A stretch of 33,353 nucleotides of DNA from a virus (taxonomy: Duplodnaviria > Heunggongvirae > Uroviricota > Caudoviricetes), in the IMG/VR virus record IMGVR_UViG_2874951433_000004. One strand, given 5' to 3'. Position 1 is the first letter of the stretch. Each line of letters starts with the position of its first letter. Both the position numbers and the translations under genes were made by a program. The notes below the pieces were generated by a model that worked only from the letters and a program-made list of their open reading frames with translations, ran no database searches and was not told where the DNA came from. Of this stretch, positions 30,013 to 32,505 are shown piece by piece.

Positions 30013-30576
30013 GTGGAAATTAAAAAAATCATTAATCCCCGTTATACCGAAAGTGGCGCAGTAGACTGTGACGTTTTTTTTGACGACAGGGACCAGGCAG
30101 TCCCCTACACAGCCACCGCTGATGATGTCGCACCGACGGGTCAGCGAATCTGGCAGGAACTGCAAAGTGGCAAATGGGGTGAGATAGCCCCATTCACTGT
30201 GACACCAGAAATGCTGGAAGCGGCCAGAGAGGCCAGACGTCAGGAAATTGAAGCATGGCGCACAGAACAGGAGGCGAAGCCGTTCACGTTTGAATGGAAC
30301 GGTCGTATCTGGAATGCTGGCCCCGACTCACTGGGCCGCCTGTCCCCGGTAGTCATGCTGGCAAAATCTGTCACAGCACAAACACATATGGTGTGGAGTG
30401 ATGCGGATAATCAGCAGGTGAAACTGTCGATGCCGGAACTGGAAGAACTGGCGGCAGCAATGGTGCAGGCGCAGGTCGATCGCAACGATGAGATTTATCG
30501 CCGTCAGCGGGAGATGAAAGAGGAGCTGAGCAGTCTGGATGATTTGGCTTCAATTCGGGCGTTTGACGTTAAGTAA
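30013..30576 (+). CDS. hypothetical tail-fibre-associated protein (possible fibre assembly/accessory protein)
   Basis: GTG 30013 after GAGGA, in frame within ORF 29953..30576; positionally where tfa-type genes lie; family not recognised. Confidence 0.45.
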   Translation: MEIKKIINPRYTESGAVDCDVFFDDRDQAVPYTATADDVAPTGQRIWQELQSGKWGEIAPFTVTPEMLEAAREARRQEIEAWRTEQEAKPFTFEWNGRIWNAGPDSLGRLSPVVMLAKSVTAQTHMVWSDADNQQVKLSMPELEELAAAMVQAQVDRNDEIYRRQREMKEELSSLDDLASIRAFDVK

Positions 30577-30740
30577 TGAATAAGCCGCAACTGGCGGAAT
30601 CACAGAAGACCGCTTTGCTTACCGAGGCGGAGTCTGTCATCCGGCCGCCGGGGTGTGCGGTCAGGCTGAACAGAGAAACGGATGAATCCGGGGAGGCCCG
30701 GGGCGGGCCTCTGTTTTTCCGGAGTCAGTCCGGTCTGTGG
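30576..30740 (+). pseudogene. remnant of a tail fibre assembly (Tfa) C-terminal region, degraded
   Basis: ORF 30576..30821 begins ...AESQKTALLTEAESVIRP.G.AVRLN.ETDE... resembling the conserved Tfa C-terminal motif, then loses similarity; abuts the 3' end of ipaH. Confidence 0.4.
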
Positions 30741-30754
30741 TTTATGCGATGTGA

Positions 30755-32505
30755 TTATGAATGGTGCAGTTGTGAGCCGTTTTCAGGCAATCGCAGGGCC
30801 AGTACCTCGTCAGTCAGCTGACGGTAAATCTGCTGTTCAGTCTCACGCATCACCTGTGCACCGGCTTCCCTCTCCGCATCCGCATCACCGCTCAGACCTG
30901 ATGCTTTCAGCCGGTCAGCCACCCTCTGAGGGTACTCATTCTCCAGCATCTCATACTTCTGCTCTTCTGCCTGCGCCCAGCGGTCAGCTTCCGTACGCTT
31001 CAGTACAGCATGCCATGGTCCCCAGAGGGAGAACCAGTCCGTAAATTCATTCTCTTCACGGCTTCTGACCATGGCTTCGGCAGTGCGGAGGTCATTTGCT
31101 GTCACTCCCGACACGCCATAGAAACGCATTTCCTTCACGGCAGTGGAGAGCTGAAGTTTCTCTGCGAGCATGGTCTGGAAGGCCAGGTAGACTTCTATCT
31201 CATCCACAAAATGGAGAGTTCTGACTTTATCCCGGGCAATGTCCTCCAGAATTTCGAGGCGGAACATTTCCCTGCCCAGGGAGAGCAGAGCGCCGGTATC
31301 ATTATCGAAAAGGCCTTCAGATGCCTGATGGACCAGGAGGGTTTTCCGGAGATTGTTCCATGTGAGCGCGACACGGTCCTCACAGCTTTCAGTGGCATCA
31401 GCAGCAACAGCGAAAGACTGCTGTCGAAGCTCCGCAGAGGCACTGAGTTTTTCCAGCCATGCAGCGACCTGTTCACGGAATCCGGAGGTATTGCGTGCAG
31501 AGACGGTATCGGAAAGGCGGTCAAGGAACGCGGAAAAGGTGTTGGCGTGCTCTTCATGTTCAAAAGCATGCCATATCTGTGATACATCAGATTGTTTGTT
31601 TTCCGGGAACCATGCTGTCACGGCATCAGCCAGGGGGCGATGGAGTGTATTCTGTTGTCCGTCACTCATGGAGAAGTAAATCTGCGGGCCGTGGTAGTCC
31701 GGCGAAGATGTTAATCTTTGCAGGGATTGCAGAGCATGGGATGACAATGGGTTATCACTAATATCTATTGAACATTCATTCCTCAGATTAAGAATGCTTT
31801 CCGGGATATGACTTATCTGATTTATGTCAAAATAACCGTTCCTTAAATTTTCCGGCAGGTATGGAATATCGGTTAACATATTGTCGATTGCCCATATGGA
31901 GTGAATGTTGTGAGGTAGAGGGGGGAGTTCACTAAGAAGATTCCCTATTGCGCTAATCTCTTGTAAAGAAAATGGTAAAGGTGGTAAAACTGCCAGCCCA
32001 TTACATGATACATCTAATGTTTCCAGTAGTTCTGGTAAAACAGGAAGAGAACATAATTGATTATTTGAGACATGAAGCTCCTTCAAAGATATGGGGAGTG
32101 TGGGTAGTGTGATTAGTTGATTGTGGGACGCATTCAATAATTTAAGTCCTTGAGGCAAAGCAGGCAGTTCAATAAGTCTGTTATAGCTGACATTAAGTTG
32201 TGTAAGGGACGCAGGCAATGGGGAGATTAAGCTTAAATTATTTTTACTTATATTAATTGATTTAATTCCCGGGGGATTTCAGGTAATGTTGTCAGGCCTA
32301 ATTCAGACAAGTCCAGGTTCGTCTCTTGGTTTTGTAGACATGATACTAGTCGCTGAAAAGCGATGTCTCGTTGTTCTTCTTGTATGCGGTTATTTTTCCA
32401 TTCAGTCCAATGGGTTAGATAATTTTCATATGCGCGGCTAGTGTCGATTGAATAAGTGGAGAACGAATTTGAAATTAATCTGTGATTGTTATTTGTCGGG
32501 AGCAT
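30755..32505 (-). pseudogene. ipaH: ipaH-family type III secretion effector (LRR domain plus novel E3 ubiquitin ligase domain), frameshifted at a G5/C5 run
   Basis: ORFs 32248..32505 (N-terminus MLPTNNN..., start of LRR region) and 30755..32218 (LRR repeats plus conserved C-terminal domain ...SPDYHGPQIYFSMSDGQQNTLHRPLADAVTAWFPENKQ...LPENGSQLHHS) are in different frames; both frames are open across 32251-32278, which contains GGGGG at 32271-32275. Confidence 0.8.

Follow-up and report, generated by a model that had tools for sequence, protein, structure and literature searches.

A tail fibre assembly gene relic beside ipaHd and the probable exchange of a host-range block in a lambdoid prophage

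How does a piece of a tail fibre assembly gene (tfa) come to lie between the tail fibre genes of a lambdoid prophage and a type III secretion system (T3SS) effector gene? The question is raised by IMG/VR record IMGVR_UViG_2874951433_000004, a 33,353-nt stretch of Caudoviricetes DNA (hereafter the window, to which all coordinates refer), whose final 9 kb are the right end of such a prophage. There a tfa fragment is wedged between an intact gene for a DUF4376 protein and the 3′ end of ipaHd (Table 1). The original prediction for this locus held that the insertion of ipaH had truncated tfa, with the junction inside the tfa homolog. Our analysis confirms the tfa homology but points to a different history: we consider it fairly probable that the fragment is the trace of an stf–tfa block (stf, side tail fibre) swapped for an stf–DUF4376 block in a prophage that bore ipaH, together with a small deletion.

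The tfa fragment and its open reading frame

The relic matches annotated tail fibre assembly genes at 72–78% nucleotide identity, with a best E value of 7e-13 in 2.3 Gb of phage DNA, so that the tfa-like stretch claimed at 30576–30700 holds up within the slightly narrower limits 30583–30685. The E values are 7e-13 for SfMu and for one P2 record, 3e-11 for Mu U, 2e-8 for gpG of L-413C, and 8e-6 for the P2 reference gpG. Matches also extend to tfa genes of Yersinia P2-like phages and to tfa in more than 1,000 Escherichia coli records (prophages), at the same gene position every time. In the Mu alignment the relic corresponds to nt 337–434 of the 528-nt U gene. Read in the frame of the ATG at 30576, 24 of 35 residues agree with residues 111–145 of the 175-aa Tfa of an intact relative described below (L012; BLASTP E 1e-11). 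What had been taken for a C-terminal motif is thus an internal piece (tfa nt ∼332–434 of 528) that lacks the first 110 and the last 30 codons of a gene whose complete form has about 175–195.

By Pfam alone, the match would be weak: Caudo_TAP (PF02413) scores 14.6 bits against a cut-off of 22.1 (E 0.037), and the sub-threshold alignment spans only positions 66–98 of the 131 in the profile. A chance or low-complexity resemblance can nevertheless be dismissed almost entirely, given nucleotide E values down to 7e-13, hits that fall without exception in annotated tfa genes at the same gene position and in frame, and the BLASTP result. Judged by these comparisons, the similarity is far beyond chance.

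The fragment also shows decay. Its nucleotide identity to intact alleles is 72–76%, with 11–13 changes at first or second codon positions, as against 4–7 among the intact alleles themselves; 11 of its 35 residues are changed, several of them where five compared intact alleles are identical, and a loop indel between copies alters the length of the relic open reading frame (ORF). These signs support a fragment that has drifted. Nor does it stand directly behind its tail fibre gene, since the intact DUF4376 gene intervenes after stf. What is left of this Mu U-type tfa is an internal piece, dead and functionally inert. RefSeq carries no annotation of it at the corresponding locus of enteroinvasive E. 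coli (EIEC) CFSAN029787, and it goes unmentioned in the literature searched, a coverage outside which the original Shigella flexneri 2a ipaH-island genome paper lies.

We also considered whether the ORF that runs through the relic might be a real mini-Tfa gene, translationally coupled to DUF4376 through a TAATG overlap. In favor of this, its ATG does overlap the stop codon of DUF4376, the tfa fragment has stayed in frame, the window copy differs from the S. flexneri copies by five substitutions of which three are synonymous, and the ORF has been called often enough to have its own PHROG family. That family, phrog_7784 (59 positions, function unassigned), is the relic ORF itself (ORF match E 1e-29), and intact Tfa matches it at residues 112–146. 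Yet the ATG and the first codons belong to the sequence downstream of DUF4376 and pre-exist in E. coli SE11 as a 5-codon ORF. The product would be without the N-terminal 110 and C-terminal 30 Tfa residues and altered at positions invariant in the five intact alleles, and its Pfam score is sub-threshold. Moreover, past the relic the frame crosses the terminator hairpin and continues antisense to ipaH, and in most other copies an additional G in the loop of the hairpin changes the frame, shortens the ORF to ∼59 aa, and leaves the C-terminal half wholly different between copies. A functional mini-Tfa is thus very improbable; the 81-aa ORF is very probably not a gene, and the 59/81-aa “hypothetical protein” is best annotated as a pseudogene fragment. 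A short intact Tfa variant ending near 30700 does not fit either, as the frame has no stop there and related prophages carry full-length Tfa.

Intact relatives and the edges of the fragment

Prophages in which tfa and ipaH are both whole were found by a protein search with the C-terminal part of IpaH, followed by look-up of the encoding contigs. In E. coli GCA_014521925.1 (L012) and GCA_014521725.1 (L013), a lambdoid prophage at the same dinI-yecD-aspS site as in EIEC CFSAN029787 (L002) carries J, lom, a 932-aa stf, a complete 175-aa Caudo_TAP gene and, 70 bp further on, an ipaH on the opposite strand that is 91% identical to that of the window. In Escherichia marmotae HT073016 (L016), the same 175-aa Tfa is encoded together with a fibre gene and Mu-like baseplate genes (Gp45, Gp46, Baseplate_J, and Gp48), and a convergent ipaH-family gene lies 70 bp from tfa, followed by dinI, yecD, and aspS. 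This Tfa and Mu U are closely homologous (E 3e-99 against PDB 5YVQ chain B, full length). Our genome sample comprised 5,426 complete E. coli genomes and 50,697 phage records; intact tfa–ipaH adjacency occurs in none of the complete E. coli genomes at a coverage of at least 80%, and the intact form is known, through the protein look-ups, from draft E. coli assemblies and E. marmotae only.

Comparison with L012 brackets the region that differs. Over J–lom (27800–28636) the two are collinear at 92.6% identity, and collinearity stops at 28636, the window stf sharing only its first ∼90 nt with that of L012. From 28637 to about 30590 the window has the 485-aa stf and DUF4376 where L012 has the 932-aa stf and the 5′ part of tfa. 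The relic then aligns to L012 tfa at 74.5% over 98 nt by BLAST (72.4% in a 105-nt in-frame comparison), and from 30693 to 33353 the sequences are again collinear at 93.8%, through hairpin, spacer, ipaH, its upstream region, and dinI (92.4% ungapped over 30693–30800).

At its right edge the fragment does not decay into unrelated sequence, as had been thought: tfa homology halts abruptly at 30685, a filler of ∼7 nt follows, and 30693–30754 is the same hairpin and spacer that stands 3′ of the intact tfa stop in the ipaH-adjacent relatives. By global alignment, ∼98 nt of L012 are absent from the window, namely tfa nt 435–528 and the first few bases past the stop. The spacer between tfa and ipaH (∼70 bp) survives intact, and only the 3′ end of tfa is lost on that side. 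We also considered a direct-repeat origin of the deletion; ATGAGG occurs at both edges in L012, but the filler ATCCGGG is not reproduced.

These data bear directly on the idea that ipaH was inserted into an intact tfa and that the tfa/ipaH boundary is the insertion junction. The stop codon of ipaH does lie where predicted, at 30755–30757 on the minus strand, tfa homology does halt 70 bp from it, and the 3′ end of tfa is missing. However, the 62 positions in between that follow the filler are the normal intergenic region of intact tfa–ipaH in L012 and L016, the main truncation (tfa nt 1 to ∼331) faces the DUF4376 module and not ipaH, and two other ipaH-type loci (L025 and plasmid pEM148, see below) retain the very 3′ end of tfa that is lost here. 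The loss on the ipaH side is a separate deletion that spared the intergenic hairpin, and the gene now in the tfa position, DUF4376, is intact. Aligning the region to tfa genes and to ipaH 3′ flanks thus located the breakpoints, but not at an insertion of ipaH, and we regard truncation by ipaH as highly unlikely.

The retained hairpin reads GAGGCCCG-GGG-CGGGCCTC followed by TGTTTTT in the window. A terminator scan of the plus strand gives it nine pairs, seven of them G-C; its fold has −26.3 kcal/mol. Its counterpart in L012 and L016, GAGGCCCG-GGGATT-CGGGCCTC, stands immediately 3′ of the tfa stop, and the window hairpin resembles the one in the U/U′ intergenic region of Mu. On the side of ipaH there are hairpins 3′ of the stop codon, but no U run on the ipaH strand. 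From its form, the hairpin with its T run probably ends tail fibre operon transcripts before they run antisense into ipaH.

The left edge, the junction with the DUF4376 module, falls inside 30583–30589, where AAGCCGC could derive from either source. The window and SE11, which has DUF4376 and no ipaH, have sequence in common up to 30588; the window then continues as tfa and SE11 as its own terminator (TAATGAATAAGCCGC, then terminator CATGAGCGGTTTTTTT). At the same point STEC313 and STEC309 have AAGCCGCGGCACGTCG, the long hairpin ahead of dinI. The junction in the window reads GCAACTGGCGGAATCACAG, and the P2-like tfa of strain C2 has GCAACTGGCGGAATTACAT. This left patch is partly explicable by either source and fits illegitimate recombination at microhomology (AAGCCGC/CAGCAGC).

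The exchange that we favor would have started from an ancestral prophage with stf, a whole tfa, a spacer of ∼70 bp with a GC-rich hairpin terminator, a convergent ipaH with its MxiE-box promoter, and dinI. That ipaH was once the neighbour of a whole tfa is suggested by the intact tfa 70 bp from ipaH in relatives and by the spacer retained here. On the lineage to the chromosomal ipaH prophages of Shigella and EIEC, the host-range block (most of stf and the 5′ two-thirds of tfa) would have been replaced by an incoming block of stf, DUF4376, and the first arm of the DUF4376 terminator, with the right crossover within tfa at about nt 332, at the AAGCCGC/CAGCAGC microhomology. A later deletion of ∼98 nt would have taken the 3′ end of tfa up to the hairpin, and the fragment would then have drifted.

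The same end product would result if a cassette of tfa fragment, hairpin, ipaH, and MxiE promoter (∼30589–32769) had instead been inserted by illegitimate recombination into the DUF4376–dinI spacer of a STEC313-like prophage without ipaH, in the short stretch between DUF4376 and the hairpin ahead of dinI. Empty sites of the required kind exist: STEC313 and STEC309 lack ipaH and have DUF4376, a 107-bp spacer, and dinI, and LR882057, also without ipaH, has a spacer of ∼320 bp between the two genes. In the DUF4376 prophages without ipaH, similarity to the window is lost at or before 30597, where a terminator stands ahead of dinI or of the attachment site. The AAGCCGC arm of the DUF4376 terminator is kept at the junction, as cassette insertion would leave it, and the slot has taken up other cargo elsewhere: E. 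coli W4 has a lambda-type tfa, two unrelated minus-strand genes, and then the same 32770–33353 segment including dinI, and the ipaHe locus has a methyltransferase in the cargo slot. We nonetheless find block exchange simpler, because both flanks of the differing block (J–lom and 32770–33353) match the ipaH prophage L012 at about 93%, and we found no donor with exactly this truncated unit outside a DUF4376 context. Insertion of a cassette is a possibility that we take seriously but think unlikely.

Besides this alternative, several points weigh against the exchange. The relic differs by ∼25% from every intact tfa found, that of L012 included, compared with flanks that are ∼93% identical, so the parental allele has not been recovered and the order of events is our reconstruction. 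J–lom is widely conserved in lambdoid phages, which makes the argument from a shared backbone weak, and the filler of ∼7 nt at the deletion site is unaccounted for. Finally, the terminator role of the hairpin and the chaperone role of DUF4376 are predictions.

The DUF4376 gene follows directly after stf and is well matched (PF14301, 62.4 bits against a cut-off of 25), with orthologues of 564 bp annotated in SE11, STEC313, and LR882057. As listed, its ORF begins at an ATG at 29953, overlapping stf by 50 nt, and ends with TAA at 30574–30576. The GTG at 30013, preceded by GAGGAA, is the likelier start to judge from the length of the orthologues and from BLAST homology that begins at 30014. The gene occupies the chaperone position, and such a role is predicted for it.

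Spread of the junction and the ipaH cargo slot

The junction region (at least 80% of 30570–30760) is present in only 10 genomes, all EIEC, among the complete E. coli genomes and in none of the 50,697 phage records, and a relic without ipaH was found in neither set. With 96.8–99.5% identity, the structure DUF4376–relic–hairpin–ipaH recurs at the EIEC ipaHb, ipaH3/Hc, ipaHd, and ipaHe loci and, in S. flexneri, at ipaHd in a ydfZ-side locus and at ipaHe, which one genome has at two places on its chromosome. The ipaHd and ipaHe loci cease to be homologous at about 31702, inside ipaH, at the onset of the variable leucine-rich repeat (LRR) part, which argues that the junction arose once and was then inherited, or spread by recombination via the conserved NEL-encoding half.

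The 3′ flanks of other ipaH genes hold different pieces of tfa or of the spacer. Tfa nt 418–528 and the hairpin are retained by L025, an E. coli gene whose IpaH-like product has 689 aa. On E. marmotae plasmid pEM148 (L029, NZ_CP025980.1 30812–31068), a NEL/ipaH-like gene is followed by tfa nt 386–528 (143 nt) and the hairpin; this tfa piece is 99.2% identical to L012, and a copy of the insertion sequence (IS) IS1414 carrying astA ends 75 bp upstream. On pINV, ipaH7.8 (from 30704) and ipaH9.8 (from 30714) share just the last 41–51 bp before the stop codon. The ipaH7.8 flank TTAAGGTCCGTAATCGGGTC, which by eye looks like the hairpin, was considered as a remnant of it and dropped, as 1,911 of 2,000 local and 1,612 of 5,000 anchored shuffles score at least as high. 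Contigs of two large clusters of partial IpaH (P0089 and P0062) stop inside ipaH and are uninformative on context, and IS256-like elements border the P0064 copy of E. marmotae, with no tfa similarity detected. Since DUF4376 prophages without ipaH lack the relic and other ipaH genes retain 3′ pieces of tfa, the distribution points to a relic attached to ipaH and not to DUF4376.

The context on pEM148 hints at movement of the ipaH family from phage to plasmid. One might go further and suppose that the ipaH family as a whole, in Escherichia/Shigella, had the tfa–hairpin–ipaH unit as its ancestral setting, that it arrived and spread as the cargo of phages with Mu-type tail fibre modules, and that the plasmid copies are phage-derived; the 143 nt of tfa on pEM148 and the spacer remnants beside pINV ipaH7.8 and ipaH9.8 bear on this idea. 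We offer it tentatively, as rather doubtful. It is opposed to the usual view that chromosomal T3SS substrate genes derive from pINV (PMC9241512).

In the S. flexneri CP162048/CP162053 ipaHe locus (L019 and L020), a first tail fibre set, with a fibre gene and an intact 181-aa Caudo_TAP gene behind a Mu-like Gp48, precedes a second one with a lambda-type stf (PF08400) and DUF4376, after which come the tfa relic and ipaHe. These two tandem tail fibre sets upstream of ipaHe are a further sign of repeated reshuffling of host-range modules.

Turning to the effector gene, ipaHd has an N-terminal LRR_TTSS domain (PF12468, E 5e-17) and a C-terminal NEL domain (PF14496, E 6e-77), and its product is 99% identical to the 583-aa IpaHd of S. 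flexneri (P0001). A −1 frameshift within a run of C (G5 on the plus strand, 32271–32275) splits it into two ORFs (30755–32218 and 32248–32505), and N-terminal identity stops at residue 78. Both the window and EIEC CFSAN029787, whose orthologue carries a frameshift annotation, have C5 in this run, whereas the intact ipaHd of S. flexneri (L026) and the gene of L012 have C6. The gene may truly be a pseudogene, the site may be prone to slippage, or the homopolymer may have been misread in sequencing.

Upstream of ipaH, GTATCGTTTTTTTACAT is the one match, with one mismatch, to GTATCGTTTTTTTANAG, reportedly the MxiE box consensus of Mavris et al. 2002 (0.02 expected by chance), and this predicted box suggests that ipaH may be regulated by MxiE. 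A nine-G run (32724–32732) lies beside it on the ipaH-distal side. GC content is 36–43% over 31550–32900, the LRR-encoding half and promoter region, compared with 51–60% in stf and DUF4376; the NEL-encoding half has 53–57%. The gene lies on the opposite strand between J-lom-stf-DUF4376 and dinI. That ipaH is moron-type cargo at the tail fibre end of a lambdoid prophage, a part of the original prediction that stands, is supported by the empty sites, the other cargo in the W4 slot, the MxiE box, the low GC, and the known pattern of effector placement.

Table 1. Positions of features at the right end of the prophage
Feature	Position	Strand	Evidence or remark
J	24377–27856		
lom	27924–28523		
stf (side tail fibre, 485 aa)	28545–30002	+	PF08400, E 2e-48
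DUF4376 gene, intact, in the tfa position	30013–30576	+	PF14301, E 6e-17; phrog_1141 “tail fiber protein”, E 4e-89
Mechanical ORF, 81 aa (relic, hairpin, antisense ipaH)	30576–30821	+	Judged non-coding
tfa relic, Mu U/P2 G type (tfa nt ∼332–434 of 528, codons ∼111–145)	30583–30685	+	
Filler ATCCGGG (∼7 nt) at the ∼98-nt deletion site	30686–30692		Global alignment to L012
GC-rich hairpin and T run, intrinsic-terminator-like	30692–30717	+	
Conserved ipaH 3′ spacer with small hairpin CCGGAGTCAGTCCGG (30719–30733)	30718–30754		
ipaHd, T3SS NEL E3 ubiquitin ligase effector gene, apparent pseudogene	30755–32505	−	
MxiE box GTATCGTTTTTTTACAT	32701–32717	−	∼200 bp upstream of ipaH start
Backbone segment, not ipaH-specific	32770–33001		93.5% identity to L010 from 32770 onward
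Long hairpin element between cargo slot and dinI	33002–33098		
dinI-like gene, prophage end	33105–33353	−	PF06183, E 1e-19

As a whole, 27800–33353 is 98.8% identical to the ipaHd locus of EIEC CFSAN029787, whose gene order matches that of the window (J, lom, stf, DUF4376, ipaHd, dinI) and continues past dinI with yecD and aspS. A long-hairpin element of ∼97 bp (ACCGCAGACACGTCG...CGTGCTGCGG) just downstream of dinI recurs as a module boundary. In prophages without ipaH, the element at 33002–33098 stands directly after the DUF4376 or tfa stop codon. Copies were noted at 844–940 and 3233–3330 of L010, at 4686–4729 and 3327–3677 of L017, and at about 1990–2085 of L008; E. coli W4 has two copies, one on either side of the cargo genes, and the ipaHe locus of S. 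flexneri likewise has two. Possibly the element is a hotspot of recombination and sets the limits of the moron slot.

Elsewhere in the window, the prophage is mosaic and defective, with features at 10732–11888 (−), 14321–15517 (−), 12442–13137 (+), and 15781–16182 (+). It contains an IS3-family and an IS110-family element. The IS110 element separates the Q antiterminator gene from the FI packaging gene, an interval in which no lysis, terminase, or head genes were seen. Upstream, at 6785–9625 (+), there is a second tape-measure/Dit-like pair.

Comparison with known systems

For this locus, the analysis offers a corrected reading of the junction, in which a host-range block would have been exchanged in an ipaH-carrying phage rather than tfa broken by ipaH. 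The succession of DUF4376 stop, tfa nt ∼332–434, hairpin, and ipaH is also a compact marker. It ties ipaHb/c/d/e of Shigella and EIEC to one ancestral junction, links the chromosomal ipaH loci to the intact arrangements in E. marmotae and rare E. coli, and could help trace the spread of ipaH. Beyond such housekeeping, the significance is small.

Remnants of tfa are familiar from the cryptic prophages of E. coli K-12, where tfaS and tfaX are short, non-functional pieces left by recombination and decay. Like them, the relic is a tfa remnant at the fibre end of a prophage; the loci differ, and we know of no effector association for tfaS or tfaX.

Among functional fibre modules, the closest comparisons are the S-U/U′-S′ module (G segment) of Mu and the H-G pair of P2, as the relic and the Tfa of L012 and L016 belong to the Mu U/P2 G family. 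The likeness to Mu extends to the arrangement: the U-type gene faces a convergent neighbour across a short spacer that holds a GGCCCG...CGGGCC hairpin, just as U faces U′. Unlike in Mu, the convergent neighbour is ipaH and not U′, no invertase or inverted repeat was seen, and only 103 nt of U-type sequence are left.

The locus type itself is known. Prophage remnants with chromosomal ipaH, the ipaH islands, are established in S. flexneri and EIEC, a finding cited to the S. flexneri 2a genome paper (PMC4226921), and RefSeq annotates ipaHb, ipaH3/Hc, ipaHd, and ipaHe. The window has the same locus type and gene and differs in nothing essential; its ipaHd is frameshifted. A recent ipaH survey covers upstream regions only (PMC9046306). 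Effector genes placed after tail fibre genes, near the attachment site, are likewise known for lambdoid prophages of enterohaemorrhagic E. coli (EHEC) and Salmonella (PMC3530523). With the exchangeable effector loci of EHEC O157 Sakai and Salmonella Gifsy prophages, the window shares an effector after the fibre genes, deviant GC, predicted regulation of its own, and absence from relatives (PMC3530523). In contrast to those loci, its effector is of the NEL/IpaH type, its MxiE box belongs to the Mxi-Spa system of Shigella, and its slot retains a fragment of a chaperone gene. Set beside these systems, the relic is an ordinary product of mosaic prophage evolution at an already known type of locus.

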